The notes under the pieces were generated by a model that ran no database searches, was not told the origin of the DNA, and was given only the letters and a program-made list of their open reading frames with translations. DNA of 44,575 bases, from the IMG/VR virus record IMGVR_UViG_2537561980_000012; one strand, written 5' to 3'. Positions 1-38,800 of this stretch are shown piece by piece (the first letter of the stretch is position 1; each line of letters opens with the position of its first letter). A program made the translations under genes and the position numbers. The stretch is from a virus (lineage: Duplodnaviria > Heunggongvirae > Uroviricota > Caudoviricetes).

Positions 1-774
1 TTACAACTTAAAGAGTTTCGCTTGCCCTGGATTAACAGCTTCGACGTAGTTTTTGACCCCTATTCTGTGCGGCTCATAATTGCTTGAATAGAAATCAATC
101 AGGAAGTCACTCATTTTCTGAGATGTGACTTTCATAACTCCCTTACTCAAAGTTAAATTAAACACGCTAATCTTTGACGATGGTGCCTGAGTTTTACTCA
201 TGTTGGCTTGATAACCAGATTTGCGCATTGCCACTAGTGCTTCGTCGTAAGCCGCTTGTAATTGGGCCAAATCGTTTGACGAGATGATCACATCATCCAT
301 AAACACACTTAGCTTGAGATCATGATGTTTGTTCAATCGGCGTAGTAAGCTACCAAAATAACTTTTATCTAAGCAGAGGGTTGCAAGTATTGGAGATTGA
401 ACAAAACCAAAAGGGAGGACATGCTTATGTGGACTATGGGACAAGTTTCTTACAGTTGAAAATGTTGAGATTTCCCGCGCTTGAGAATAGGTGAAGTAGC
501 TCTTTAGATCACGGGTGATACGACTACGGCTCGTTGACTGAAAAAATTGTTTAATATCAACAACGGCAAAAAAATCACTTTTTAAGTGTAATCTGGCAGC
601 TTTAAGATGCCCACCAGTTCTTAGATGGTAAAAATAGAGTGGCGGAATCCACTTGTTTCTGACAGCCTGAAGTATCTTCCCTCCGACTTTACGTGCCTCA
701 ACGCTTGGGACATAAACCCAAACCCCGGGCTTAATCTCAAATTTATCTTCCCACCTTTGAACTTCTATTGTCAT
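1..774 (-). CDS. Reverse transcriptase, retron-like, compact (257 aa); complete ORF with stop at 1-3
   Basis: RT motifs visible in translation: motif 1/2 'KPGVWVYVPSVEARKV..KILQAV', motif A 'VVDIKQFFQS' (cf. retron Ec86 'NIDLEDFFPS'), motif B' 'LPFGFVQSPILATLCLD' (cf. Ec86 'LPQGAPSSPKLANLICSKLD'), motif C 'FMDD' (plus 292-303). Low GC. Only about 14 aa precede motif 1, so the N-terminus is unusually short. Confidence 0.8.
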   Translation of the reverse strand: MTIEVQRWEDKFEIKPGVWVYVPSVEARKVGGKILQAVRNKWIPPLYFYHLRTGGHLKAARLHLKSDFFAVVDIKQFFQSTSRSRITRDLKSYFTYSQAREISTFSTVRNLSHSPHKHVLPFGFVQSPILATLCLDKSYFGSLLRRLNKHHDLKLSVFMDDVIISSNDLAQLQAAYDEALVAMRKSGYQANMSKTQAPSSKISVFNLTLSKGVMKVTSQKMSDFLIDFYSSNYEPHRIGVKNYVEAVNPGQAKLFKL

Positions 775-1099: not shown

Positions 1100-2437
1100 C
1101 ATAAGCGCTAACTTAAGGGTTGAACCATCTGAAGAATGCGACGCCTCGGTGCCTCGTTAAGACGATGCCTCGCGTTCTTCAATTGCGTTTTGTAGGCTGT
1201 CAGGGATACTGTCCCACGAATGGCCACCTGTAAGCTCCAGATGACCATTTTTGTTATTCTCCACAACGAGTTAGTTCTTCTTTTCGGATCCGGCACTTCT
1301 GGGGGGGAAATCCAGCGATGGCTGGATTATGTCGTCAATTAAAAATGCGGCGAGTAGATTAGCAAATATCCACGCTTTCGCGAGTTCAGGTTCCTTTGCA
1401 CGCAAAGCATCCAGGTGCAGCAAACTTTTGAGCCGCTTAAAAGCCAGTTCAATTTGCCATCGCAGACGGTAACAATCAGCCACTTGCTCTGCTGAATATT
1501 CATCTTCCGGTAATGATGTTAGCAATAGCACATGGCCCGCTGCTTCCAGCGTTTCCGCCTGAACTACTCGTCCTTTTCGACGATTCTCGCTGAGCAGTCG
1601 GGTTTTACTGATTAATGCTTTTTCGGGAGGAAGTGATACGGCAATGAGACGTGCCGGAAAGGGAGCTCCGGCTTTTTTATTACCTGAATTGCCTATCATT
1701 ACAGTGGTTTCACCGTTCTTACCGCAATCCAGCCCGCGCAGAAAACCCATCATGTCAAAGCGCATTCCTTCTGCAGTTAACCAGCGCAATCCTCGCCAGT
1801 GAACCCGGACGATATAATCAGCTTCTCCAAAAGCAAGTGAGCGGATACATTCGGGACGCGAACCGAATCCCGGTCAGCAATGCGTATCTCGTCTGCCGTT
1901 TGCGCAAATCGGTCCAGCCGTTCAGCGTCTCTGCTGTCGGTTAGCTCAAAATCAGTGAACTGACAGGTATGAGGATCATATCCCATATGTAGTCGCCATT
2001 CAGCGCTGCCGCCCCCGGGCGCACTGATTGCTGTTCCATCGACAAGACGCAATCTCTTTCCGCTTGTACAACCCGTAACTGCGGCGCGTACAGCAAGTGT
2101 TTGTGCGGCAAGTATGCCAAACCAGTCGGCGGCATTCCGCAGCCGCTTCAGGAGAGCCACGTCAGATAATGTTGCAACGTCATGGAGCTGAGCCCATGCA
2201 GTGACTTCACGTAATGACATCCCCCCGGGGCCGTAAGCCAGCCCCAGACGTAGCAGAGTTGCAGCATCACGAATTTCGCGGCGGCGGGTTAGAGCCCCGG
2301 CATTACGTGCCGAAGTATCCAGTTCTTCGGGCTTACCAATATGGGCCAGAATTGCTGACCAGTTATCGTGAGAGTAATTCATCGGCACGTTAAATCATAT
2401 CAGGCGTAATACCACAACCCTTAAGTTAGCGCTTATG
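1100..2437 (-). mobile_element. IS186 insertion sequence (IS4 family), 1338 bp
   Basis: 23-bp terminal inverted repeats cataagcgctaacttaagggttg (1100-1122) and its reverse complement (2415-2437); length equals canonical IS186; internal ORFs match IS186 transposase. Confidence 0.95.
1271..2382 (-). pseudogene. insL: IS186 transposase, split by a 1-nt deletion in a G/C run (plus 1869-1871)
   Basis: Two ORFs (203 aa, 172 aa) together reproduce the IS186 transposase as I recall it ('MNYSHDNWSAILAHIGKPEEL...', '...RWLTAEGMRFDMMGFLRGL...'); adding one G in 'gaccgggattcgg' restores 'ADRGFGSRPE...HWRGLRWLTAEG'. Confidence 0.9.
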
Positions 2438-3935: not shown

Positions 3936-4417
3936 GACAGCAGCCCTCCCACCGTTTTACTGATATCACTTAAGGCAGATGTTGCCGTGTCCTGCAGATT
4001 ATTCAGCTGCGTACTGAGATCACCGAACATATCGGACAGGGATTCATCCACCCGTTTGAGCGACAGGGTGAACTCAATCCGGCGCGGCATACCGTCGCGG
4101 AAAAACTCCGTTTTAGTCAGATTCAGTCCCTCAATCACATACATGCCGTAAATCGTGCCGCTGCCTTCAATCAGGGGCCATGCTTTTCCCTGTTCTGCCA
4201 TCTGCTCCAGAGCCAGCAACGACAGCCTGCCGCCCGTTATCTCCGGCATAAGAACACCAGAAAGCGTCAGCATGTCGTTGTCCGGTCCCAGAAACTGCGT
4301 GGACGGACGACGGTTTACCCGGCTGTTTGCCGCATGTCGCCAGCTGCGTTGATACTGCAGTTCCTGATACGGAACGGTGCGCAGCATAAACACGTACAAT
4401 CCCAGCACCATCATCAT
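3932..4417 (-). CDS. U: Tail protein U
   Basis: 161 aa, gpU-like; ATGA-type overlaps with T and D. Confidence 0.9.
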   Translation of the reverse strand: MMMVLGLYVFMLRTVPYQELQYQRSWRHAANSRVNRRPSTQFLGPDNDMLTLSGVLMPEITGGRLSLLALEQMAEQGKAWPLIEGSGTIYGMYVIEGLNLTKTEFFRDGMPRRIEFTLSLKRVDESLSDMFGDLSTQLNNLQDTATSALSDISKTVGGLLS

Positions 4418-7400
4418 GCGTCGTATCCCCCCTGATCGCTGTAGTTACTCCTGGCTTTTGCCTTCAGCCTGCGTTCACGTTCATCAAGCTGGCGTGCCAC
4501 CTCCCGCGCAATATCCTGCGCACTTTGTCCTGGCTGCGTCTGAATGATGATCTGCGTCGGTGCCTCAATCCGGTGAACGGGCGGCACAGTGGCTGCACGA
4601 CTCACCATCGCTTCGCCGCCTTTCGCGGGAAGTGCCAAAGGATGCAACGGTGGAAGCTCTGCAGGCGCGGCAGCAACGCCCATCATTCCGGCAACAACGG
4701 CAGCCAGTGCAGCTGTATTTCTCCGGCTGGTCACATTTGCCGGGCCGTTAACAATTTCCGGCCCGTTTTCACCGACGATGCCAAACTGCCCGCGCGGGAT
4801 ATAGCCGCCGCTGTCATACATCCCCGCAAAGCCATATCCCCATGACGGAAAACCACCCGATGGCATCATCACTTTACCGTCTGCATTCACCGTCGCAGGT
4901 TGCTGACGCGTCACTCTTTCCGGCAATTTCGCCTTTGCAGCCTCTTTACTGACAATGCCGAGTTTCTCCAGCAACCAGGAAACGCCGGATTTCAGGGAGT
5001 CCAGCGGATGCATGACCATATTCAGCCCTTCCGCCAGTGCCTCCCCGAATCGTCGCCCCATTGCCGCTGCGCTCTGCAGTTCGGCAGAGGTCGACTTAAC
5101 GGGCGTCAGCAGATCAGTAAACCAGCCCCACAACGCCTGCACTTTGTCGCCAATCCACTGAAACACAGGCTTAAGTGGTTCGAATGCTGCACTGATGGGA
5201 CCTGCCGCCGCTTTGAATCCTTCCACCACACCAGCGAGAAATGCGGTGATGGGTTGCCAGTATTTCCAGACAACCAGCGCCACGCCCGCCAGTGCAGTAA
5301 CCACAAGACCTATCGGACTGAGCAGAGCACCTAACAGACCCGATATGGCATACAGGGCAACGCGCAGCATCGCCAGCGGACCGGATGCCAGTACTCGCAG
5401 CACCGCGCCTGCGGCAGCCAGTCCACCGCGTAGTGCTGCCAGTGGATTCATAAACATCACAGCAACAGCACGTAAACCGGATAATCCAGACCGCAACAGT
5501 GCAACCGGCACACCTACTACAGTTTTCAGGACATTCCCCGTCAGTGATGCCGTGCGGCGCAAAGACGACAACGGCGCAGTAAGTAAACCCGCTGCGTTGC
5601 CCGATGAAGCAAGCCCGCGTCGCAGCAGTGCCAGTGGAGCGCCAGCTAACCAGGACAACGCGCTGCTGGTTCGTGTTACTGCTGCCGTAACGGAAGGTAA
5701 CGTTTTGATACCCAGCACAGAGAATCCCAGACGGATGACTGCCAGCGGCCCCAGCACTGCAGCCAGCGCCACCACTAAGGTGCCGAGGCCTACGGTAACC
5801 GCAGCCACAACAGCCGCTACTTTCATCAGTGTGCCTGTCAGTTCCGGGTTAGCTTCCACCCAGCGGCGCAACGCCCCCGTGATGCTTTTCACCGTGTACA
5901 GAATATCCATCAGCGGCTGGCGCAGCGTTTCGCCCAGGCTGCTGAAGGTGTTCTGCGCTCCGGTTTTGACCAGTAACCACTGAGCAGAAAGTGAGTCCTT
6001 ATTGATGTCGGATTCTTTCTGCATGGAGCCGAGCGCATCATTGCCCGCTGTCAGTTTTAACTGACGCTGCAGTTCCGGCAGGTTGTTTGCCAGTTTCGCC
6101 GCGTCATCGCCAAACTCTTTACCAAACAACATGGTCATGGCAGACAGACGCTTGTCCTGCGGCAGTGCGTTCACCTTCTCCAGCACACGCTGGATAGTTC
6201 CCATCGCATCCTTCGTCATCTGCTTTTCAATCACTTCAGGATTGAGTTTCAGCAGATTCATCCCTTCAAAGAAACTCTTGCTCTGCATGGTGGCAATGGA
6301 CAATTCACGCACCATCGCGTTTGCTGCACTGGCTGCAACCTCCGGCGCAGCGCCCAGTGTCAGGAAGGTGGAACCCAGCACCGCCGCTTTACGATAATCC
6401 AGACGGTCAGCCACACCGCCCAGACGTTGCATCACATCAATGATGTCCGCCCCTTTCGACATGGCGTTATCATCCAGATAGTTCAGCGCATCGCCGAGCT
6501 GTTCAATATTGCGGGTTGGTATTTTGTAGAGCTGGGCGATTTTCCCCAGACTTTCTGACAGTTCATCCGCTGGCAGCTCAAAGGCTGTTGCCGCCTTTGC
6601 TGCCGTACTGGCGAAGGCCAGCAGGTCACGTTTCTGGTCTTCCCAGCTGTCGTCAGGGTTTGCGACGTTCATGCGCGCACCACCTTCAACCAGTGCAGCG
6701 AAGTCCACCGCACCGTTTTCCATCGGCAACTGTTCGCTGGCAGCCTTGATGGCATCCTGCATTTCATAAAAACGTGCAGTGCGGTTGCCATTATCGTCAC
6801 GCAGACCATTGACCTGCTTTGCCACACCTTTCATGGCATCTTCCATGCTGGTATAGCTTTTTACTGCCGCCATCACTGGCGCACCCATTGCCAGCCCTGC
6901 AGCCGTGGTAGTGGCTCCGGCTCCTGCGATGCGATCGCGCACTTCAAGCCGTCTTGAGTATTGTTCTCTGGCAGCGTTCATCCGTGCCTGTTGTTCACCC
7001 AGACGTTTAAGTGCTTTTTGCTGGCCCTCCAGTGCCTGCCTTGTTTCTTCAGCATTTTTCTTAAGTTCTCGCTGGGCACTACTGAGTTGTCTGGTATCAA
7101 TCCCTGATTCTTTAAGTGCCTGACGTTGTCTCTGGACCGCCCCCAACAAGCCGTTATAGGTCTGCTGAAGTTCCTGTACTCGTGTTTTGGCCTGACTGAA
7201 TAACTTTGCCTGCGCGGCGGTTGGCCTGTTAGTGGCAGCAAATTGTGTGGCGAGTTTTGCCGCCTCTTCGCGGGCTGCGTTCAGGTTGTTGGCTGTTATG
7301 GCTAGTTGCGAGCGCGTCTTGCGAAATTCATCAATTCTGCCAGCCTGCTTATTCAGTTCTTTGAGGCTGTTTCGGGTATTCTGAATTGCGCCAGCCAGCT

Positions 7401-23374: not shown

Positions 23375-23896
23375 TCAGTTAATCAGTTTATTTAATGACT
23401 TAGACCACTTCTGTCCCAAATCATCAATATCAAAATCACCATCTCGCTGCTGCCATTTAAAAACTAAGGCTATAAGTTCACTCTTGAGGATTCTTTTATA
23501 ATAATCCTTAGATTTTAATTGCTCAAGTATATGTTCACCAACCTCAGCAAGCTTTCTATGATTTAATTCTGACAGATCTCGATGCAAATGGTTAACTGAT
23601 TTATACAAAGTATTTCCTTCAGTACGAGAAATATCAATACCTTTATCTTCAAACCATTGTGAATCAAGCCAAACCAAATCTATCGTAGCTGGCTCTGACA
23701 TCGTGGTGGCAAGGGCAACAATAATTTTCTCTACCGATTCATCTTGAAAATCGATAGAGTCAGAAACCCAAACTGACAAGGTGTTATTAGAGGTCCTTGT
23801 GCAACCTGTTATCGCGTCTGCGGATATATTGTCAGGTGCTCTACCTTTATTACATTCCCATTTACTATGGGATATTTTACGCAATAAATATGTCAT
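23375..23896 (-). CDS. Hypothetical protein, third gene of AT-rich cargo operon (173 aa)
   Basis: ATG overlaps the upstream stop as TAATG; low GC; no recognisable motif. Confidence 0.7.
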   Translation of the reverse strand: MTYLLRKISHSKWECNKGRAPDNISADAITGCTRTSNNTLSVWVSDSIDFQDESVEKIIVALATTMSEPATIDLVWLDSQWFEDKGIDISRTEGNTLYKSVNHLHRDLSELNHRKLAEVGEHILEQLKSKDYYKRILKSELIALVFKWQQRDGDFDIDDLGQKWSKSLNKLIN

Positions 23897-24543
23897 TATA
23901 GACTTCTCAAATATCCTATAACTGCTTCTTTATATTCTTCCACCCAATCAGCATCAAATTTCCTCATTCTTTCAAGGACTGGAATAAATGATTTTTCCCC
24001 CCAAGACTCAACTGCACGGATCGCTGCCTCAAATATAAGTTCATTCTCAAGAGAACAAACTCCCATAATCATAGCGTCAGCTTTATTACCTAACCATTCA
24101 TATTCAATAGTCGATGCAAAATTAATGAAGTTCTTTACATGTTGATCATTCATTCTGTACAATTGTACCCATGTCCTTTGAAAGGACTCTTGGAATAAAT
24201 CCTGATTTTTATCATACAAGAACTCCATGTAAATCTGTGTCTTGCTTATCTCGCCTTCAATGTAATCTTCTGAACATGTTAACTCAATTAGTCTAGAGGT
24301 ACATTTTGAAACCTGAATTTCAAAGTTCTGCTTAGTTGACGAACCTTGATTTATTGACTCAGTCTCTAATTGAAAGCCACCATTTGTTTTGCTATGTGAC
24401 AGCTCATTTCTTTTAATATCAGCGTAAATGATATTGTTACCATCATAATAATCAGAAAATGCACCTATTGAACTTACCCCATTTTTAAACTTAGGTAAGC
24501 CAAAAGGCTTTTCATCACTTATTATAAAACTATTCTTTACCAT
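23896..24543 (-). CDS. Hypothetical protein, second gene of AT-rich cargo operon (215 aa)
   Basis: Starts 9 nt after the upstream stop with 'aggtga' RBS; no recognisable motif. Confidence 0.7.
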   Translation of the reverse strand: MVKNSFIISDEKPFGLPKFKNGVSSIGAFSDYYDGNNIIYADIKRNELSHSKTNGGFQLETESINQGSSTKQNFEIQVSKCTSRLIELTCSEDYIEGEISKTQIYMEFLYDKNQDLFQESFQRTWVQLYRMNDQHVKNFINFASTIEYEWLGNKADAMIMGVCSLENELIFEAAIRAVESWGEKSFIPVLERMRKFDADWVEEYKEAVIGYLRSL

Positions 24544-24552
24544 AGCATCACC

Positions 24553-25248
24553 TTACAGAGAAGTGTAGCGTTGTAAATTATCAATAGTTTTAAGATTGTC
24601 CTGACACAATAACTCTAGCACGCGGATATATTCATCCCAACCAAACCGCATATATCCATTTTGAGGAAGAGTATTAGTATCAGTTTCAAATAATACGCAA
24701 TCACTTGGCATACCATTATTCAAAAATGGAGCTGAAATTTCAGCGCGTCTAATTGTACTAATACTATTAATTTCTTCCTGATACTCTTCAATATTTTTCC
24801 TTACAGCTATACGATTGTCCCACTCAAATGGATTAACACCTTTATAGGTAAACAAAGCATTGTAAAGCGAAAAGTAAACAGATTCATCCCCTTGATAGAT
24901 ACGTGAATTCAGAACAGCTATCCTATTTCCTTTTTTCATCGGAAATACGTTTTGTAGTTCCCTAGATATAGATAGAACCATTTCTGAAAACGCTTGAGGT
25001 TCCCCCCCCAAACCATTAAAAATGATTCCATGGCTAGGAAACTCGACTCTTACTGTTTGATTGGTATCTACCATGATAAGAATTTGCTTTTTCTCACCAG
25101 TGATGGCATTAATCTCCTGACCAAAAGTAGGTACAAATCCAAATTTTCCAATCTTATCAAGCATAGATCCAATAGTTAGTGTATTTGGAACTATATCATT
25201 ATTATTTGTGAAAAAATTAATCTGATGCGTCTGTTCAATCAATTTCAT
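24553..25248 (-). CDS. Hypothetical protein, first gene of AT-rich cargo operon (231 aa)
   Basis: ATG start with AGGAG 6 nt upstream; no recognisable motif. Confidence 0.7.
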   Translation of the reverse strand: MKLIEQTHQINFFTNNNDIVPNTLTIGSMLDKIGKFGFVPTFGQEINAITGEKKQILIMVDTNQTVRVEFPSHGIIFNGLGGEPQAFSEMVLSISRELQNVFPMKKGNRIAVLNSRIYQGDESVYFSLYNALFTYKGVNPFEWDNRIAVRKNIEEYQEEINSISTIRRAEISAPFLNNGMPSDCVLFETDTNTLPQNGYMRFGWDEYIRVLELLCQDNLKTIDNLQRYTSL

Positions 25249-30759: not shown

Positions 30760-31269
30760 TCACAGCAAACCGAATGAAGCACCGAGGCCAGTCACGGTAT
30801 CAACTGCACTCGCCATCGCAGGATTAGCCTGTAAACGGGCCTGCAATGAAACAGCAGCCAGCGCCATCAGTCGTGTTACAGAGTTAATGCTGCTGATAGC
30901 ATCACGACGACCTGCACTGGTTTTTACATCGCCAGATACCGCACCTGCAGCAACACGCCCGATCTCTGCGGTTGCACTCATGACGTAATGTGGCAGTTTC
31001 TCTTTTGCCACCTCATTAATCGGTACACATGGCAGACAATGAATCTGTGCCAGAAAACCATCTATCAGCGTTGAGTCTTCTGTCAGATCGGTAAGCAGCC
31101 AGATTTCTGGCGCATTGAGCTGATGCGGTTGATCTGGGTTGAGTTTGTTTCGCAGTGTCTGAACATTCATTCCTGCACGTTCTGCCAGCTTCGCCATATT
31201 GTGACGTAGTGCAAAAGCTCTACAGGCTTCATCAAAATACGGATGTTTGGAAATCTTGTAATCAAACAT
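30760..31269 (-). CDS. cII: CII-like lysogeny-establishment transcription factor (186 type)
   Basis: 169 aa; first long gene of the lytic-direction operon after the apl-like gene, divergent from cI. Confidence 0.7.
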   Translation of the reverse strand: MFDYKISKHPYFDEACRAFALRHNMAKLAERAGMNVQTLRNKLNPDQPHQLNAPEIWLLTDLTEDSTLIDGFLAQIHCLPCVPINEVAKEKLPHYVMSATAEIGRVAAGAVSGDVKTSAGRRDAISSINSVTRLMALAAVSLQARLQANPAMASAVDTVTGLGASFGLL

Positions 31270-31384
31270 GCTGCCCCCTTAGAAAGTTCCCATAATTGAA
31301 CTTACTTACCAACAATGACGCGGAAGTTGGAATGTCCGAGGGATTCACGGACCTGATCAGTTTTGTACATCAGATAACGCAGAC

Positions 31385-31543
31385 TTACGCGGCCTTTGTT
31401 TTTTCTTTCTTGACCATGTACTTAGCAAGTTGACCATGGTGAATTTTTTGGTAAACAGAGCCGCGGGAAATGCCCTCCCACTCTGCGAACTCTGCAGGTG
31501 TTGCCATCTCTTTTGGTACACGAATTGAAATATCAGTACTCAT
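31385..31543 (-). CDS. apl: Apl/Cox-like excisionase and repressor (52 aa as read; possibly truncated by a homopolymer indel)
   Basis: Not in the ORF track (<60 aa); HTH-like 'ATPAEFAEWEGISRGSVYQKIHHGQL'; first gene divergent from cI; A6 run near its 3' end. Confidence 0.5.
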   Translation of the reverse strand: MSTDISIRVPKEMATPAEFAEWEGISRGSVYQKIHHGQLAKYMVKKEKTKAA

Positions 31544-31589
31544 AGTGCAGTATCTCTTACTTTGTGTGCGTGTTAGTTCGTTTTAGCCC

Positions 31590-31616
31590 GTCTCTTAAAC
31601 TCTCACATCAAGAGAC
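31590..31616. promoter_or_regulatory. Inverted repeat GTCTCTT-N13-AAGAGAC in the cI/apl switch region (putative operator)
   Basis: Seen directly in the 121-bp divergent intergenic region. Confidence 0.45.
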
Positions 31617-31630
31617 AAGAAAACATTACG

Positions 31631-31645
31631 ATCTTGATTCAAGAT
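31631..31645. promoter_or_regulatory. Palindrome ATCTTGA-T-TCAAGAT just upstream of cI (putative operator)
   Basis: Perfect 7-bp arms, 20 nt upstream of the cI ATG. Confidence 0.45.
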
Positions 31646-31664
31646 TGTCAAATGGAGATTACCA

Positions 31665-32297
31665 ATGTTAAACATCAGAATGGGTTCCGATACGGGAGGT
31701 AAAGCAGCTATTGAGAGGCTGCTTGCGGCTTATGGATTCACAACTAAGCAGGCATTAAGTGAGCACCTGAATGTCTCAAAAAGCACTATGGCAAACAGAG
31801 TGTTACGTGACAGCTTTCCTGCTGACTGGATAATTCAGTGCGCACTAGAAACCGGTGTTTCGTTGCTTTGGTTAGCTACAGGACAGGGAAGCATGAAAGC
31901 AGGATCTGAGACTGAAAAAAGATCTCATAATGAGAACAAACAAGCAATTAAACCGTTATCTAAACTCATAACTCCATCTATTCCTAAAGGAACCTTGGAG
32001 AATGGACAACTCAGTATTGATGAAGAGATTTTCCTAGACCACAGCATATTACCTGCAAATTATGAAGAATCGATGTTCTTAGAAACCCCTACTGATTGTT
32101 ATCTCATCGATAAATCAGTTAAACAAGTCAGCAATGGATTCTGGCTTATCAATATTGATGGAATGATTATTATTGCAAAAATTATGCGGATTCCCGGCAA
32201 TAAGATTGTAGTAAATCAAGATGAAGCGTCTTTCGAGTGCTCTGCTGATGATGTGGAAGTTATTGGGCGTGCAGTCAAAGTAATAAAGAGTATCTAA
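31665..32297 (+). CDS. cI: CI repressor (186 type, HTH N-terminus plus oligomerisation domain)
   Basis: 210 aa with HTH 'TTKQALSEHLNVSKSTMANRV'; immediately followed by int in the same orientation, as in phage 186. Confidence 0.8.
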   Translation: MLNIRMGSDTGGKAAIERLLAAYGFTTKQALSEHLNVSKSTMANRVLRDSFPADWIIQCALETGVSLLWLATGQGSMKAGSETEKRSHNENKQAIKPLSKLITPSIPKGTLENGQLSIDEEIFLDHSILPANYEESMFLETPTDCYLIDKSVKQVSNGFWLINIDGMIIIAKIMRIPGNKIVVNQDEASFECSADDVEVIGRAVKVIKSI

Positions 32298-32299
32298 AC

Positions 32300-33316
32300 A
32301 TGACTGTCAGAAAACAGCCAAACGGCAAATGGTTGTGTGAGTGCTATCCCAATGGACGCAATGGCAAGCGCGTGCGTAAGCAATTTGCTACGAAAGGAGA
32401 AGCCATTGCTTTTGAAAGCTTCACAATGGAAGAAGTGAATAAAAAACCGTGGCTAGGTGAAAAGGATGATCGGCGACGCCTATCAGAATTAATTGAGCTT
32501 TGGTATTCCCTGTATGGCCAGACACTCGCAGACCCCAAGCGCCTCATGGCGAAACTTAGAATTATCTGTAATGGTCTAGGCGACCCCATCGCCTCAGAAC
32601 TGACAGCCGGTGACTTTACAAAATACCGCGAAGCACGGTTAAAAGGCGACGTTCGTAACGAAGACGGCACACTAATGTCGCCAGTAAAACCACGCACGGT
32701 GAATCTTGAGCAACGTAACCTATCATCGGTTTTCGGCACATTGAAAAAACTAGGCCACTGGTCAGCACCAAATCCTCTCGCCGGGCTGCCAACATTTAAA
32801 ATCGCTGAGGGGGAACTGGCGTTCCTGACCTCGGAAGAAATTAAACGTCTGCTAGATGCCTGCGCTGATTCTCAAAACCCCAGTCTGCTTTTGATTGCAA
32901 AAATATGCCTGGCCACCGGCGCACGCTGGAGTGAAGCCGAAAACCTGCAGGGCCATCAGTTATCTAAATACCGCATCACTTATACCAAGACGAAGGGCAA
33001 GAAAAACCGCACCGTGCCGATATCTCAAGATCTGTATGACGAACTCCCCAAGAACAGAGGGAAGCTATTCACCCCGTGCAGAAAAGCCTTTGAACGGGCA
33101 GTAAAGCGAGCTGGCATCGAGCTGCCAGAGGGCCAATGCACTCACGTGCTACGTCATACATTCGCCAGTCATTTTATGATGAATGGCGGAAACATACTGG
33201 TCCTACGCGATATTCTGGGCCATGCCGATATAAAAATGACGATGATTTACGCCCACTTTTCGCCGGATCATCTTGAAGATGCAGTTACTAAAAACCCTTT
33301 ATGCAACTTAAGATAG
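32300..33316 (+). CDS. int: Tyrosine integrase (P2/186 family)
   Basis: C-terminal catalytic region 'HVLRHTFASHF...LGHADIKMTMIYAHF'. Confidence 0.9.
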   Translation: MTVRKQPNGKWLCECYPNGRNGKRVRKQFATKGEAIAFESFTMEEVNKKPWLGEKDDRRRLSELIELWYSLYGQTLADPKRLMAKLRIICNGLGDPIASELTAGDFTKYREARLKGDVRNEDGTLMSPVKPRTVNLEQRNLSSVFGTLKKLGHWSAPNPLAGLPTFKIAEGELAFLTSEEIKRLLDACADSQNPSLLLIAKICLATGARWSEAENLQGHQLSKYRITYTKTKGKKNRTVPISQDLYDELPKNRGKLFTPCRKAFERAVKRAGIELPEGQCTHVLRHTFASHFMMNGGNILVLRDILGHADIKMTMIYAHFSPDHLEDAVTKNPLCNLR

Positions 33317-33632
33317 AGTAACTTATGAAAATAAACTCAAATTATTTACAAATATAATATTCAGCAGGTTATCCATTCTTATTTAACTCTTCAGACTGAG
33401 ATTAGATTTTATTTATAGAATAAGATAATTTCATATCACAAAAAACCTGTAAGCCCTCATCTTTGTTGTATAAAAACATAAAAGATGCCATATTTAAAAA
33501 AGTAGAAAAGCATTGCAATGCAACATTAAAAATAAACCAATAAAAACCAGTCATTAGAAAATGAAAAAAAAACAAAAACATTTTTTATCAAAGCTTCAGT
33601 CTGACTACTAGTTGGACTCTGCAATTAACTAT

Positions 33633-33662
33633 CAAGATGATCAATATTTATTGATCATCTTG
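33633..33662. repeat. 30-bp near-perfect palindrome containing two GATC sites
   Basis: 'caagatgatcaata tt tattgatcatcttg', 14-bp arms; 34 nt downstream of the deaminase gene stop. Confidence 0.6.
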
Positions 33663-33695
33663 AAGTTGCCCTCAGGAAAGATGAGTATAATATTT

Positions 33696-35438
33696 CTACT
33701 CAAGAAGATATTCTAACTCATCTTTTATCGGGATAACTTGCTCATAAAGTCGGTGATATGACTTCCCAATTGCGCCTCTGAATTGTATTAACTTTGGTGG
33801 CTTGTTACCTATATTAATAATATGGTCTTGAGCTATACCTGGGTAGGGATCAATAAATACAATTTCAGATATACCTAACTGATAAGCTTTTTTCGCACAC
33901 AGCTCACAGGGACTGGCAGTTGTATATAACCTCCCCCCCTGAACGCCAATGCCACCATATTTTGCAAGTTGTAAAAATGCGTTTTCCTCAGCATGTAATG
34001 CACGTGTATGAACTTGATTACCTTTTTTATCTTTATCAAGATCATTATGTATATCTTTAAAACAATAAGATAAGTTCCTGCCTCTATAAATATCACCAGT
34101 TTTATCTATCGCCCTAAAATTTAATAGTTTCTCATTAGCTTTAATTCTGAAAGAACTATTATTTCTCTCATAATGACTGTACACTTTTTCATCAAAGTCG
34201 TTCATTAGGCCATCTAGCGATCTCATAGAGCAAGGAATCTGACCGTTGGCGACATCATTCCAACCCACTGATTTTATTGAATTTTCACCATCAGTTACTA
34301 CAGCTCCCACCTGTCTAGATATACAACCAGAGTTTAATTTTACCGTATACGCAACTTGCATAACCCTTTCCATTGCAGTAGGTGTTATCAGACCAGGATG
34401 CTTCATCAGTGCGATGTACCACGCTAATTGTGCTTTTAAAATATTGTCATTATCAAATTCATTTTTTGGGTTAAAAATGTGTATATCTGATAGTTCAATG
34501 CATTTAGTTACATTTGGATTAGTGAGATGTTTGTAAGAGTTATCACCTTTACCTGACTCTACAGAATCTATTTCCTCTATCTGCTTTTCAGAAAACTTAT
34601 GTAGTTTCCGCAAATAGTTTGTTCGATGTTCATCTGGGGCATTTATTGACATTAAATGAAATGCAGAATATCTATCCTTAAAAAATTTTGCTTCATATGG
34701 ATTTCTAATAGCATCTATGACAATTAATGCGTTATCTCTTTTGCTTTTTCTTATTAATTTAATAACCCTATTAATAGTTTCCGGCAAATGAAAAACAGAT
34801 TTAGGTATAAACTCTTTATCTTCAAAATCGACTTCAATACGCCCACGGCGTCTAATTGACTTACCTGCTAACTGATAGACTGAAACATATAAATTTGAGT
34901 TTATCGCATTTAGTTCAGCTTTGAATTCCTTAGTAAATTTTCTAACTAACCTCAAAATTGATATAAATTTATTAATCGTTTTTTCATTAAGCTTCAATTC
35001 ACTATTATGATCAAGCAAATTCTCAATTACATTTTTAAATCTTGTTAAAATGAGATTATCTGAAAATACACCAAAAGTTAATACATTATCTAAATGCTCT
35101 TTACTGATAGATTTATTAGATGATAGAATAAACTCAGAAGCTTCTTCAACTGTTAACATCAAAAGATACGCTGAGATTAGGTCACTCACCTTAATTGAGT
35201 AAAAATTTTCCCAGTGATTTTCTGCGAATTTTTTAACTATATTATAACGATGGACATCCAATCCCTTGTAAAAACCCTGTAATTTACTTACATCAGGGAA
35301 GACTGTTTTTTCGTTTTCAAGAATATTAGCTGTTGTTGTGCAACCAGAACCAGTTCGACCTGTCAAACCGACTAAAATAAACTGCCCATTTTCAAGGAAA
35401 AGCTCACTAACGAATTTTTTTCTTTCATCACGTCCCAC
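33696..35438 (-). CDS. P-loop nucleotide kinase fused to cytidine/dCMP deaminase (AvcD / defensive dCTP-deaminase type)
   Basis: N-terminal Walker-A-like 'GLTGRTGSGCTTT'; C-terminal zinc-deaminase motifs 'HAEENAF' and 'PCELCAKKA'. Very low GC. ORF as given starts at GTG; an ATG at 35426-35428 becomes in-frame if the T7 run at 35415-35421 is one base short. Confidence 0.75.
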   Translation of the reverse strand: MGRDERKKFVSELFLENGQFILVGLTGRTGSGCTTTANILENEKTVFPDVSKLQGFYKGLDVHRYNIVKKFAENHWENFYSIKVSDLISAYLLMLTVEEASEFILSSNKSISKEHLDNVLTFGVFSDNLILTRFKNVIENLLDHNSELKLNEKTINKFISILRLVRKFTKEFKAELNAINSNLYVSVYQLAGKSIRRRGRIEVDFEDKEFIPKSVFHLPETINRVIKLIRKSKRDNALIVIDAIRNPYEAKFFKDRYSAFHLMSINAPDEHRTNYLRKLHKFSEKQIEEIDSVESGKGDNSYKHLTNPNVTKCIELSDIHIFNPKNEFDNDNILKAQLAWYIALMKHPGLITPTAMERVMQVAYTVKLNSGCISRQVGAVVTDGENSIKSVGWNDVANGQIPCSMRSLDGLMNDFDEKVYSHYERNNSSFRIKANEKLLNFRAIDKTGDIYRGRNLSYCFKDIHNDLDKDKKGNQVHTRALHAEENAFLQLAKYGGIGVQGGRLYTTASPCELCAKKAYQLGISEIVFIDPYPGIAQDHIINIGNKPPKLIQFRGAIGKSYHRLYEQVIPIKDELEYLLE

Positions 35439-35623
35439 TTATGAATGTAAGAATATTCAACATATTAATTATAATTTATTAACTCATTTTGTTCTAGATA
35501 CTTGATGTAATGGCGGCACTTTGGCGACGGAGCATTAAAAACGCGTAAGACGAGCAAATACAACAAAACACTAACACATTGTTTTTAAATATAAATAGCT
35601 GTTTTTACTATACTAAAAATGGT

Positions 35624-35661
35624 ATGTAGGAATTTCGGACGCGGGTTCAACTCCCGCCAGC
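35624..35661 (+). other. 38-nt copy of the ssrA (tmRNA) 3' end: attachment-site remnant
   Basis: 'atgtaggaatttcggacgcgggttcaactcccgccagc' matches the E. coli ssrA 3' end as I recall it but lacks the terminal 'tccacca' and all upstream ssrA sequence. Confidence 0.8.
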
Positions 35662-35823
35662 CAATCATGATTGGACGGTATAAGGACAACACCAATAAAA
35701 ACAGTAAGTTAGCAGTCTCAGCAGGACACCGACCAGACGGTGAAGAGACATAAAAGGATACGCAAAGGAGCCGCGGCTCCTGGTGACATGAAAGCCCACA
35801 GATGTGGGCTTTTTCGTTGATGG

Positions 35824-38800
35824 TCAGAACGACCAGTTCACACCAGCTACCCCGTTCCACGGGGATTCCACACCGGCACCATGGCTATACCCCACCCCAA
35901 GATGCCCGCTTAACGTACTGCTGAATGAGGCTTTAATACCTGCCTGGTATATTCCACGTCTGCCCGACAAATCATTGACGAAATTACCGTCACTATTCAC
36001 TTTCACCCGGTTATCATCGACAAATTCTTTGCGCACAGCCGCCTTCAGCCACGGCTCAACTTCCATACCGTTCCCCAGACGCATGTTGTAACTCAGCGTT
36101 GCACCCAGTTCACGATATAAACTGCGGGTATCGACTGATTTCGATTCCATGCCATTGGATAAATGATATTCAGGGTTATCAGCGGTGAACCCCCGTTAAC
36201 GATGCATACGGCGTCAGGTTCCAGTTACCATCGGTAAATCGCATCCCGGTTTCAATGTGACCGCCCAGCCCGTAGCTGCGATAACTGCCGTTGGCGGCTC
36301 CACCGCTGCCAACCGTGGAGTCGCGAGCTTCGGTACCTGCTAATACCAATAAATTACCGCCATTTTCCAGCAACATATTGGTCGCTAAATTGCCGGAAAT
36401 GGAAAAAGTGCCGTACTGGTGAGTACCGCTGATTTCAATACCGTTAGCCGTGCTCGTCTGGAGAGCGGCACCGCTGTTCTGGACGATATCTGTCGCTTTG
36501 CCATTATCGTTAACTGTCAGCGTACCGCCTTCATTGATCTTTGTTTTTATTGCCTCTCCGTTAGCTGAAACTGTTTGTATTCCGCCGTCGTTAATCGTTG
36601 TCTCATTCGCCACCCCCTCGACGATTTGTTCGCCGCCGGTGAGCGTCGTGCCTGTCGCAGTGGCTTTTGTTTTGACGATCTCCCGTCCGCCCGTATTGAC
36701 CTGTGTTTTGTCAGAAGAGGTGTCTGACTCCACGGTTAACACGCCGCCATTTGCCAGCAGGATATTGTTCGCCGCACCCTGCTCGATGCTGAACGCGACG
36801 CCATCCGCGCGTGTTCCTGTGACCCGCGTCGCCCTGGTGGTTGCAACCAAAGCGCCCTGGCTACTCTGCTGTATCCCCGTTGCGCTGCCTTTCTCCCGCA
36901 CATCGAGTGTGCCGCCGTCATTAAGCACCGAGTTTTCAGCCAGACCGCCCTCATTAACTACCTGTGAACACCCATTAATAATGGAACCTTCCGCTATCCC
37001 GTTTGCCATAATTTGTTGTAGGCCAGAGACGATATCGGTATTGATCGCCTTACCATAATTCTGAACGGTTTGTGTGCCGCCATTGATGTGCGTTTTGTCA
37101 GTTGACCCACCATCAACAATTTGTTCACCACTTTCAATATTTGCCTCAGTGGCTAAACCATATACCGTTTGCTTGCCACCTTTGATATTTGCTTTATCAG
37201 AAGTGGCACTGGCATATATTGTTTGGGTGCCAGCACTATTAAGTACAGTGCCAACATCTTTTCCATAAACATCCATTTTGCCGTTGGCATTAATAATCGT
37301 ATCAACTGCCCGGGAACCAGTGACGACTGTTAATGAGCCAGCGTTTTCCAGCACTACATTTTTAGCTTCTGAATTCCTGATGTAGAAAGCATCACCATAA
37401 CTGTTGGTTCCTTCGATAAGGGTTCCGGAAGTTGTGGAAGCAATTAATGCGCCGCCGGATTGTTGCTCAACATGCTTAGCCTCACCACCGTCCTGAACCT
37501 CCAGAACGCCACCATTATTAAGTCTGGTGGTATCTGTTTTAGCCTCCTTCTGGACAATCAGCTTACCGCCAGCATCAACGGTAGTATTTTTCGCCGAGGT
37601 TTTAGCCACTACCGTCAGTTCGCCGGTATTTTCCAGCACAACATAATTAGCCTCCCCTCCGGTAATAGTGAAGTGAGAGAGCTTGTTGTATCCTTCAATA
37701 TCAGTCCCTGCGCCCGTGTTGGCAACTAAAGCACTGCCCGTCTCCTGGTTAACCCCATGTGCAATACCGCCGGTATAGACAATCAGCGAGCCTCCGGCGC
37801 TAATATTGCTGCCAATTGCCGTACCATCTTTCTCAACAACTTGCTGGCTCCCGGAGGATATAATTGTTGTGTCAGCTTTCCCACCGCTTTTGATATTTTG
37901 CGTTCCGCTGTTGATATTGGTGCCTGTGGCTATGCCATAATTATTAAGATTCTGTGTGCCACCATTAATTATGGTATTTGTCGCGTTTCCTGCAACATCC
38001 ATAACCCCGCCATTATCTATTCGGGTCGCATCAGCTTTAGCATTCGTTAAAACTGACATTGTTCCTTTATCTTTAATAATCGTCTTGTTTGCGGAATGAG
38101 ATACTTCTAAATGGCCTCCATTTTCCAGCAACACATTGTCTTCCACTTTATTGTGGATGGAGAATGCACCTTCACTATTCGTACCGCTCACCGTCGTACC
38201 GTTAGTGTTTGTTTTTAAAATTGCACCATCGTGCTGGGTAACATTTGTTGCCGTACCACCACTAACATCAAGCACGCCACCGGAATAAACTTCAATAACA
38301 TCCGAGGTGCTGGTGTTATTAACAATTTGCGTGCCACCAGAATAGATCTGCGTAATTTTTGCCGTTGACTTACTATTCAGAGACTGAGTTCCGCCTTCAA
38401 TCGTCGTGTCCAGCGCACGGCTCTCATATACTCTTTGCTCACCGCCATTTTTAATGGTTGTTGTTTCTACTGTGCTCTGTTCAACATACTGTCGACCACC
38501 ATTTATGGTTGTGTTCGTTGCCAGACTTCCTTGTACTACGTCCTGAGAGCCAGACTTATTTATCGTTGTACCATCAGCATGCCCTTGAACTTTTACTATC
38601 TGGCTACCACCATCAATGAGTATTCCATTCGCACTCCCTCCCTCTACGCGTGAAGCACCGCCCTTAATTGTCGTTCCATTGCTGATACCCCCTTTATAAA
38701 CGTCCTGATTGCCACTCTCGATTGTCGTACCTGTGGAAATACCCCCGTCATGAATTGACTGTCTGCCACCGTTAATGGTTGTATTATTAGCCTGCCCCAC

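Follow-up and report, generated by a model that had tools for sequence, protein, structure and literature searches.

The window, a 44,575-nt stretch of DNA from a Caudoviricetes record (IMGVR_UViG_2537561980_000012), contains the P2/186-like genes int, CI, terminase gpP, portal gpQ and GpA, together with a long open reading frame in the interval between int and att (Table 1). The first-pass annotation had placed a kinase–deaminase fusion of 580 aa in an AT-rich segment directly after int and before an ssrA remnant, and both its location and its composition were borne out: the gene is flanked by int on one side and by a partial tmRNA hit on the other, and GC content is 0.32–0.37 across the deaminase segment, compared to ~0.55 for the prophage backbone. 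Related prophages, with integrases 91–94% identical, carry other genes in the same int–att interval, such that the cargo between int and att is variable, as in a P2-like int–att hotspot. This interval has been described as a minor P2 defence hotspot (PMC13586616, NAR 2026), and the deaminase occupies the same position as the defence cargo reported there, with no difference in kind. The deaminase gene points away from att and towards int, whereas the unknown cargo genes at the related loci L002 and L003 are co-directional with int.

Table 1. Features of the deaminase module and its surroundings (positions in the window).
Feature	Position	Strand	Observation
Tyrosine integrase, 186/P2-like prophage	32300..33316	+	Pfam Int_N and Phage_integrase; convergent with deaminase gene
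AT-rich non-coding 3′ spacer of module	33317..33695	-	Restricted to the 20 genomes that carry this allele
dCTP-deaminase ORF as read here	33696..35438	-	RefSeq WP_000660070.1 'anti-phage dCTP deaminase', 577 aa
Native CDS	33696-35428	-	ATG start; 577 aa in sister alleles
Zinc-deaminase catalytic motifs HAEEN ... PCELC, C-terminal	33897..33995	-	Pfam dCMP_cyt_deam_1, E=1.3e-14
P-loop GLTGRTGSGCTT, N-terminal NMP-kinase-like domain	35334..35369	-	Cys at canonical Lys position
Poly-A run	35415..35421	-	A7 in window, A8 in 20/20 sister alleles; ATG at 35426-35428 out of frame
Module-specific upstream DNA (82 nt)	35429..35510	-	Boundary by alignment A2; perfect -10 TATAAT 35468-35473, weak -35, SD-like GTGGGA before ATG
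Prophage backbone beside att core, read as attP arm (~110 nt)	35511..35620	.	Kept whatever cargo the prophage carries
att core, ssrA (tmRNA) 3′-end remnant	35621..35667	+	Rfam tmRNA partial hit 35597-35667; exact 33-nt core 35629-35661

The combination of an N-terminal P-loop with a C-terminal HAE...PCxxC signature in one protein, originally read from the letters alone, was confirmed by the motif and Pfam assignments. As the first-pass annotation had proposed, profile HMMs were used to place the protein within the deaminase families, and both the NCBIfam equivalog NF041025 ("anti-phage dCTP deaminase") and the PADLOC dCTPase model matched, the former at 423.6 bits, only just above its curated cutoff of 400, and the latter at 4.1e-145. 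A match to phrog_8118 spans the protein end to end. The protein not only exceeds the family cutoff score, but also possesses the zinc domain (HAE, PCxxC), the G-S-G-C P-loop and an experimentally validated relative, which supports the original assignment to the anti-phage dCTP-deaminase family. The allele occurs in 20 of 5,426 complete E. coli genomes, of which 19 carry near-identical copies under the RefSeq name 'anti-phage dCTP deaminase', and any relative detectable by nucleotide search (~65% identity or more) occurs in 38 of the 5,426, always on mobile elements. A scan of genome contigs (alignment A1) recovered 27 loci at 41–72% identity; AvcD of V. cholerae or V. parahaemolyticus was absent from these 27 because the peptide patterns used are clade-specific. 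Similarly, the protein homology search did not reach the AvcD clade, the matches listed all being at 57% identity or more, and nucleotide searches did not recover avcD of E. coli H10407. The PDB holds no full-length relative, and no relevant structural or mechanistic work on the clade of 576/577-aa proteins was found in the literature from 2023 onwards.

Two members of this clade provide an opportunity to relate the locus to experiment. In Table S1 of Tal et al., the proteins of E. coli U09 (577 aa) and AW1.7 (576 aa) are listed as 'validated experimentally', and a construct synthesized from U09 was shown to be protective. Over the 399 nt of the U09 construct visible in Table S5, the sequence is identical to the sister allele L039 at 392 of 392 positions, and to the window at 367 of 393 (93%). 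The L039 and window coding sequences are 97.5% identical, with 16 non-synonymous sites and pN/pS ~0.16. The U09 gene has the same protein length as the window's sister alleles and occupies the same locus and genomic slot (ypjA-side flank, ssrA remnant, arm, promoter, gene); it differs in belonging to the other sub-clade, with 16–18 non-synonymous differences, and in lacking a frameshift at codons 3–5 that is the window's own. AW1.7 (WP_045268677.1) is more distant, being 72% identical over its full length, although the P-loop (GRTGSGC) and the zinc motifs are identical; it resides on a different mobile element, with a different integrase, adjoining tRNA-Phe. For the AW1.7 homologue, dCTP is depleted on T7 infection and both domains are required, with defence lost in a kinase-motif mutant (G29A and C30A together) and in zinc-site mutants (Tal et al. 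preprint); escape occurs through T7 gp5.7 and gp0.7 (Tal et al.). The P-loop Cys, which the earlier reading had flagged as an oddity in a Walker A motif, is no anomaly: it is invariant in 32 relatives, and it is one of the two residues substituted in the AW1.7 mutant that lost defence.

On the basis of these sequence comparisons, the locus is very probably a single-gene anti-phage dCTP deaminase of the 576/577-aa 'Tal-type' clade, namely an allele of the validated U09 gene, carried as AT-rich cargo in the integrase–att interval of an ssrA-integrated P2/186-like prophage. Both the gene, as a prophage-borne and laboratory-tested type of nucleotide-depletion defence, and its cargo slot are already known, making this an ordinary result for annotation. 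The comparisons presented here show the family to which the protein belongs, its architecture, how nearly identical it is to the tested allele, where the cargo begins and ends, and whether its reading frame is intact, while biochemical activity and trigger are taken from the literature. Judging from its homologues U09 and AW1.7, the enzyme, an NMP-kinase-like P-loop domain joined to a zinc dCMP/dCTP deaminase, would be produced by the lysogen under a promoter of its own ~40 nt 5′ of the ATG and may be inactive while the cell is uninfected. Shutdown of host transcription by an infecting phage would then be the trigger, upon which dCTP (and dCMP) would be converted to deoxyuridine nucleotides and phage DNA replication starved, with both domains presumably needed.

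How such an enzyme might be restrained before infection is a separate matter. The first-pass annotation suggested that the ~190 bp upstream of the gene (35439-35623) may encode an RNA antitoxin similar to AvcI; in such a type III toxin–antitoxin pair, an RNA on the same strand and 5′ of the gene would inhibit the deaminase until phage-induced transcription shut-off allowed the RNA to decay. The suggestion has precedent in AvcID (V. cholerae VC0175/AvcD with AvcI, and the E. coli H10407 plasmid p58 protein WP_000951932.1), since members of the AvcD clade, including that of H10407, are inhibited by a 152–174-nt RNA located directly 5′ in the same orientation (10.1101/2021.03.31.437871; PMC10511110). 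AvcD belongs to the same NCBIfam equivalog (470 bits for H10407 and 424 here), and the two systems appear alike in their two-domain logic, in having a non-canonical P-loop and in depleting dC nucleotides. In addition, many relatives of the window gene have 250–520 nt of AT-rich non-coding DNA upstream, and the protective U09 construct takes in the whole of 35439-35623. However, H10407 AvcD, the E. coli protein with a demonstrated RNA antitoxin, is just 26% identical over 427 aa, with 532 aa rather than 577 and the P-loop GFAGCGMKT. The H10407 gene is also preceded by an annotated small ORF of 186 nt (the AvcI region), 12 nt upstream and inside a 536-nt intergenic region, whereas the window has no such element.

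The upstream interval itself exists as originally described, but is composite rather than a unit of the module. Approximately two-thirds of it, at 35511-35620, is prophage backbone, which is found at 75–84% identity in >100 E. coli genomes without the deaminase, among them related prophages that carry other cargo, and which travels with int (the integrases of prophages having this arm are 91–94% identical). Only the 82 nt at 35429-35510 are module DNA, which falls short of the minimal 152–174 nt and is filled by a -10 element and a ribosome-binding site; an RNA of ~150 nt or more that is part of the module, on the same strand and directly 5′ of the gene is thus not supported. The -10 element was assigned by eye and was not flagged by a consensus promoter/terminator scan, which found nothing in 35439-35623. 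Divergence of the upstream DNA between sub-clades is 0.09–0.10, compared with a pS of 0.07, and so provides no sign of constraint, corresponding instead to an approximately synonymous or neutral rate. The predicted fold is no better than that of shuffled sequence (z=+0.99). Rfam searches, at E up to 1 on 31000-37000 and at the gathering threshold on the whole window plus 20 related loci, returned only the tmRNA remnant near the gene, and there was no match to the validated H10407 AvcI region; AvcI RNAs lack mutual sequence similarity, so the missing homology is weak evidence. The three prophage-borne variants have coding sequences 72–74% identical but show no conservation in the proximal upstream region. 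Likewise, the upstream region of AW1.7 is unrelated, with ~220 nt conserved across genera in its own clade and none in common with the window. The AW1.7 construct begins only 83 nt 5′ of the ATG, yet the enzyme is inactive before infection. Taken together, these observations make an AvcI-like RNA in this interval very unlikely.

It is possible, though tentative, that the U09/AW1.7 clade is instead controlled without an AvcI-type upstream RNA, either by the kinase-like domain or by a very short leader. The 82 nt of module-specific upstream DNA, their neutral evolution and the 83 nt retained in the AW1.7 construct are all compatible with such control. Alternatively, an RNA inhibitor could overlap the 5′ UTR or the coding sequence, or be encoded elsewhere. 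If control without an AvcI-type RNA holds, the type III toxin–antitoxin logic shown for the 532-aa AvcD clade would not extend to anti-phage dCTP deaminases as a whole. For annotation, an "anti-phage dCTP deaminase" should not always be taken to imply an AvcI-type RNA upstream of it, and in prophage-borne alleles of the U09 type the upstream interval is mostly phage attachment-site DNA.

The reading frame required closer attention. The open reading frame of 580 aa was confirmed on the minus strand, read from GTG 35438, but its length is not the native one. In all 20 sister alleles the start is the ATG equivalent to window position 35428, followed by an A8 run, and 577 aa are encoded by the 19 of the 20 that are unbroken; judging from these alleles, the native protein is not the 580-aa reading. 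The window has A7 in place of A8 at codons 3–5, and the native frame does not remain intact from its start codon: it breaks after four codons, so that reading from the ATG runs into a stop after 18 codons, with MKEKNSLVSFSLKMGSLF as the product. The long frame is open only from GTG 35438, which is directly preceded by TAA and overlaps the SD-like GTGGGA, such that full-length protein from the window copy would need either this SD-less GTG or slippage on the A-run. Restoration of A8 has essentially no effect on family assignment (423.7 bits against NF041025). Since the contraction breaks the native frame, the copy represents either a homopolymer mis-assembly or a disabled or attenuated allele, and the missing A could be an assembly error. 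The A7 state of the window is a new detail.

A second broken allele, ETEC1731, begins at the native ATG, and its coding sequence ends early owing to a G7-to-G6 frameshift at codon 497; an N-terminal truncation was considered for this allele and rejected, with the native ATG present and the lesion lying at codon 497. Two contracted alleles, the A7 of the window against the A8 of 20 sister alleles, and the formal resemblance of A_AAA_AAT in the ATG frame to the X_XXY_YYZ slippery pattern, as read from the sequence, might suggest that the A-run is a slippage-prone on/off switch. In this scenario, phase variation or programmed -1 frameshifting would tune a potentially costly defence enzyme, and A7 would be a biological 'off' or 'low' state. 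However, A7 occurs in just one of 21 alleles, both lesions are single-base homopolymer contractions of the kind typical of long-read assembly error, and that of ETEC1731 lies elsewhere and deletes the zinc ligands, resembling decay or error rather than a switch. Tracts of seven or eight A residues are also short for efficient slippage. A switch is accordingly very improbable, and is still less likely than AvcI-free control of the U09/AW1.7 clade. With the window copy and one sister allele each broken by a one-base homopolymer contraction, finding the gene in an assembly is no assurance that the defence works.

The idea that the gene encodes a pyrimidine-salvage enzyme, a housekeeping ComEB/dCMP deaminase located in a prophage by chance, is effectively refuted: although an alignment to dCMP deaminases is obtained for the C-terminal domain and some databases call relatives 'ComE operon protein 2' or 'deoxycytidylate deaminase', the match to TIGR02571 (ComEB) reaches 37.1 bits where the cutoff is 219.45, the 577-aa protein has two domains, of which the kinase-like one is obligatory, rather than a single domain of ~150 aa, its spread is sporadic and confined to mobile elements, and the tested alleles protect against phage.

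Several minor features of the module and its borders were also apparent. At the acceptor end of the att core, the window has a 5-nt gap relative to three of five sister alleles compared (L037, L038 and L040); L041 has four of the five bases, and the gap is shared by L001 and L039. In the 3′ spacer, a 59-aa ORF at 33402-33581 was rejected as a gene, with no family match and with indels that break the frame in sister alleles, and miRNA hits at 33612-33739 were discarded as hairpin noise. An imperfect direct repeat of 34 nt flanks the module (33356-33389 and 35452-35485, 71% identity), and is probably a chance occurrence in AT-rich DNA. Finally, a perfect 15-bp palindrome at 33632-33663, ~33 nt past the stop codon, is unchanged in all alleles and is possibly a terminator.

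The 580-aa protein encoded between int and the ssrA remnant had been described in the first-pass annotation, from its motifs, as a kinase-deaminase fusion of the anti-phage dCTP deaminase family, and profile searches bear this out. Pfam detects dCMP_cyt_deam_1 (E=1.3e-14) together with a P-loop match that is sub-threshold only, the PADLOC dCTPase model matches at 4.1e-145, at 423.6 bits the protein passes the curated cutoff (400) of the NCBIfam equivalog NF041025 ('anti-phage dCTP deaminase'), and PHROG 8118 matches end to end. Agreement among these four resources confirms the fusion architecture, and the translation carries both the N-terminal GLTGRTGSGCTT and the C-terminal HAEEN...PCELC. 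The protein is therefore a member of this family, with its two folds and the conserved catalytic and P-loop residues. The alternative of a ComEB identity was rejected (37 bits against the NCBIfam cutoff of 219), and no full-length relative was found among solved structures. The protein evolves under purifying selection (pN/pS ~0.16).

This is a known gene with prior experimental validation. Near-identical copies bear the RefSeq name 'anti-phage dCTP deaminase', and of 5,426 complete E. coli genomes, 20 carry the window-type allele, in every case between the same integrase and ssrA remnant. Two family members were cloned by Tal et al., from E. coli U09 (577 aa; synthesized sequence in their Table S5) and AW1.7 (576 aa), both marked 'validated experimentally' (10.1101/2021.04.26.441389). 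The U09 construct starts in the ypjA-side flank (~window 35824) and continues through the ssrA remnant and the same upstream region into the gene. Its visible 399 nt are identical to the sister allele of strain CAVP773 at 392/392 positions and to the window at 367/393; since the CAVP773 coding sequence is 97.5% identical to that of the window (pS 0.073, pN 0.012), the window carries a near-identical allele of a phage-defence gene validated in E. coli. The AW1.7 protein, at 72% identity to the window-type protein, eliminates dCTP after T7 infection; T7 escapes it through mutations in gp5.7, a host RNA polymerase inhibitor, and gp0.7 mutations are reported in dGTPase escapers (Tal et al., 10.1101/2021.04.26.441389). 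By extension from Tal et al. and Hsueh et al., the deaminase would be present yet inactive in the lysogen, would be activated by phage-induced loss of host transcription, and would then deaminate dCTP (and dCMP) to deoxyuridine nucleotides, halting phage DNA synthesis.

The Cys at the canonical Lys position of the Walker A motif, previously flagged as anomalous, is instead a required family trait and no defect. Six E. coli variants (57-75% identity) keep this Cys without exception, as do 32/32 relatives from Enterobacterales, Vibrio, Pseudomonas, Vogesella, Nitrosomonas and others. Defence and dCTP depletion by AW1.7 are abolished by G29A and C30A, which affect the same two residues in native numbering of the window protein (Tal et al., 10.1101/2021.04.26.441389); in V. 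cholerae AvcD the corresponding residue is Ser, and S52K inactivates the protein (10.1101/2021.03.31.437871).

The genomic setting also agrees with the first description of a very AT-rich segment beside int: GC is 0.32-0.37 in the deaminase segment compared to ~0.55 in neighbouring phage genes. The element is identified as a P2/186-like prophage by its terminase, portal and GpA genes in other parts of the window, and because a second att core and a tmRNA gene (Rfam) are both absent from the window, the other prophage end lies beyond the left edge. The deaminase is cargo in the P2-like int-att slot, a minor defence hotspot accounting for ~3% of P2-borne systems (PMC13586616).

Features of the deaminase module, its prophage setting and other cargo (window positions)
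Feature	Coordinates	Strand	Basis or remarks
Reverse-transcriptase gene	1-774	-	Cut by window left edge; RVT_1 2e-21
Two ORFs adjoining reverse transcriptase	1271-2388	-	Jointly resemble split DDE transposase; IS remnant
Three co-directional ORFs (173, 215, 231 aa)	23375-25248	-	GC 0.34-0.39; between portal gene (gpQ) and GpA
CI-type repressor	31665-32297	+	ORF and domain match; left of deaminase
Tyrosine integrase (int)	32300-33316	+	ORF and domain match; left of deaminase
Spacer, deaminase stop to int			379 nt; only in the 20 genomes with window-type allele
Perfect 15-bp palindrome TCAAGATGATCAATA aa TATTGATCATCTTGA	33632-33663		~33 nt after deaminase stop
Deaminase ORF, 580 aa	33696..35438	-	ORF listing of window
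Perfect TATAAT (-10)	35468-35473		Read by eye
ssrA 3' fragment	35597-35667		Rfam tmRNA, partial match; right of deaminase
att core	35629-35661		Exact 33 nt, within ssrA remnant

In the AvcD clade, the inhibitory RNA AvcI (DifV) comprises 152-174 nt directly 5' of the gene, on the same strand and in one operon, with a full-length transcript of ~280 nt and no sequence similarity between species (10.1101/2021.03.31.437871; PMC10511110). It had been proposed that 35439-35623 encodes such an RNA antitoxin, and we examined this region for cargo boundary, content, constraint, structure, homology and the function of the nearest characterised relative. The ~115 nt adjoining the att core are matched at 75-84% in >100 E. 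coli genomes without the deaminase, two of which (L002 and L003) carry the same prophage type with unrelated cargo in the int-att slot. In an upstream alignment of five prophages with integrases 91-94% identical, the conserved block stops at 'GCCGCCAT' (window ~35510) in 5/5, regardless of cargo. Given this independence from cargo and the similarity of the integrases, 35511-35620 is read as a putative attP arm co-travelling with int, on the basis of position and co-inheritance, and the module-specific upstream DNA of the deaminase is confined to 35429-35510 (82 nt). By eye, this stretch holds the -10 element, preceded at a distance of 17 nt by a weak -35 element, and an SD-like GTGGGA that 4 nt separate from the ATG, so that the leader would be ~30-40 nt, too short for an RNA of at least 150 nt. 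Between the two sub-clades of the allele, the arm differs at 11/110 positions and the module-specific part at 7-8/82; this is close to the synonymous divergence of the coding sequence (0.07), indicating that the upstream DNA evolves at about the neutral rate. The 192-nt upstream sequence folds no better than shuffled controls (z=+0.99), and the region matches no Rfam family.

In the validated E. coli AvcID locus, found on H10407 plasmid p58, the intergenic region before avcD (532 aa) spans 536 nt and contains, 12 nt upstream of the gene, a 186-nt small ORF (2618-2803); nhmmer found no match between the AvcI region of this locus and window 33200-35900. The H10407 AvcD (P-loop GFAGCGMKT) is 26% identical to the window-type protein, although both exceed the NF041025 cutoff. 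Furthermore, the AW1.7 construct starts only 83 nt upstream of the ATG, and its dCTP depletion still occurs after infection only (Tal et al., 10.1101/2021.04.26.441389). Taken together, the six lines give no support to an AvcI-type RNA encoded in 35439-35623, which we consider improbable; an inhibitor overlapping the short leader or coding sequence, or encoded elsewhere, is possible. Upstream non-coding gaps range from none to 919 nt among 32 relatives, and the clade therefore has no uniform upstream anatomy. In the AW1.7 clade (Escherichia, Buttiauxella, Pseudocitrobacter, Erwinia and Yersinia; L005, L010-L013), ~220 nt of AT-rich upstream DNA accompanies the gene across genera, with 72-75% identity to the Yersinia sequence, whereas Tal et al. 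included the proximal 83 nt only in their functional AW1.7 construct.

The 580-aa protein first annotated corresponds to a real ORF, but its start codon required correction and this copy is frameshifted. RefSeq gives a 577-aa protein whose start is the ATG corresponding to window 35428. The poly-A run GTGATGAAAGAAAAAAATTCG is A7 in the window (35415-35421) versus A8 in all 20 sister alleles in the database, six of them read from an alignment. The 1,730-nt query is matched over 1,731 nt in 19 of these copies; ETEC1731, the remaining one, is likewise A8 at the run and has a deletion at another place. In the window, the ATG frame meets a stop after 18 codons, and the 580-aa ORF is open only through an SD-less GTG at 35438, in the shifted frame, directly after a TAA and overlapping the SD-like sequence. 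The A7 run may reflect an error of assembly or mark a disabled allele. ETEC1731 (NZ_CP122816.1) represents a second broken allele, in which G7->G6 at codon 497 yields a 517-aa product that loses the PCELC zinc ligands and is named 'deoxycytidylate deaminase' by PGAP, not 'anti-phage dCTP deaminase'. For two homopolymer contractions in 21 alleles, the likeliest reading is long-read assembly error or sporadic decay, and a slippage-based switch at the A-run, formally possible at A_AAA_AAT, is very improbable by comparison.

The spacer diverges at about the neutral rate, and a 59-aa ORF within it was rejected as a gene, being broken by indels in sister alleles and having no family match. The palindrome is identical in all alleles compared, in surroundings that vary by 6-7%, and may be a terminator or protein-binding site; no U-tract follows it. 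An imperfect 34-nt direct repeat (71% identity; 33356-33389 and 35452-35485) lies just inside both module ends and could have arisen by chance, given the AT-rich DNA, or be left over from cargo acquisition. At 35658-35667, 5 nt (GGTGG/GTGGA) from the acceptor end ...CCAGCTCCACCA are missing from the ssrA remnant; they are kept in 3/5 sister alleles compared (L037, L038, L040) and in L002, L003, L006 and L007; sister allele L041 lacks one of the five, and L001 and CAVP773 share the deletion of the window.

Other cargo was also apparent. The three ORFs between gpQ and GpA occupy the canonical P2 defence hotspot, have no Pfam or PADLOC match, and are candidate uncharacterised cargo. The best PADLOC match of the reverse transcriptase is retron-type RT_VI (6.6e-18), and the gene could represent a second, retron-like defence cargo within this prophage region. 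In the related ssrA-integrated 186-like prophages, the unrelated int-att cargo is co-directional with int (L002 4111-6487, 397 and 375 aa; L003 4114-5145, 343 aa), and these proteins, for which Pfam gives no match, may represent unknown defence genes. Finally, a Saccharospirillaceae contig (L027) carries an Rfam sRNA-Xcc1 match at 4375-4461 (68.8 bits, above the gathering score), ~160 nt downstream of its deaminase homologue.
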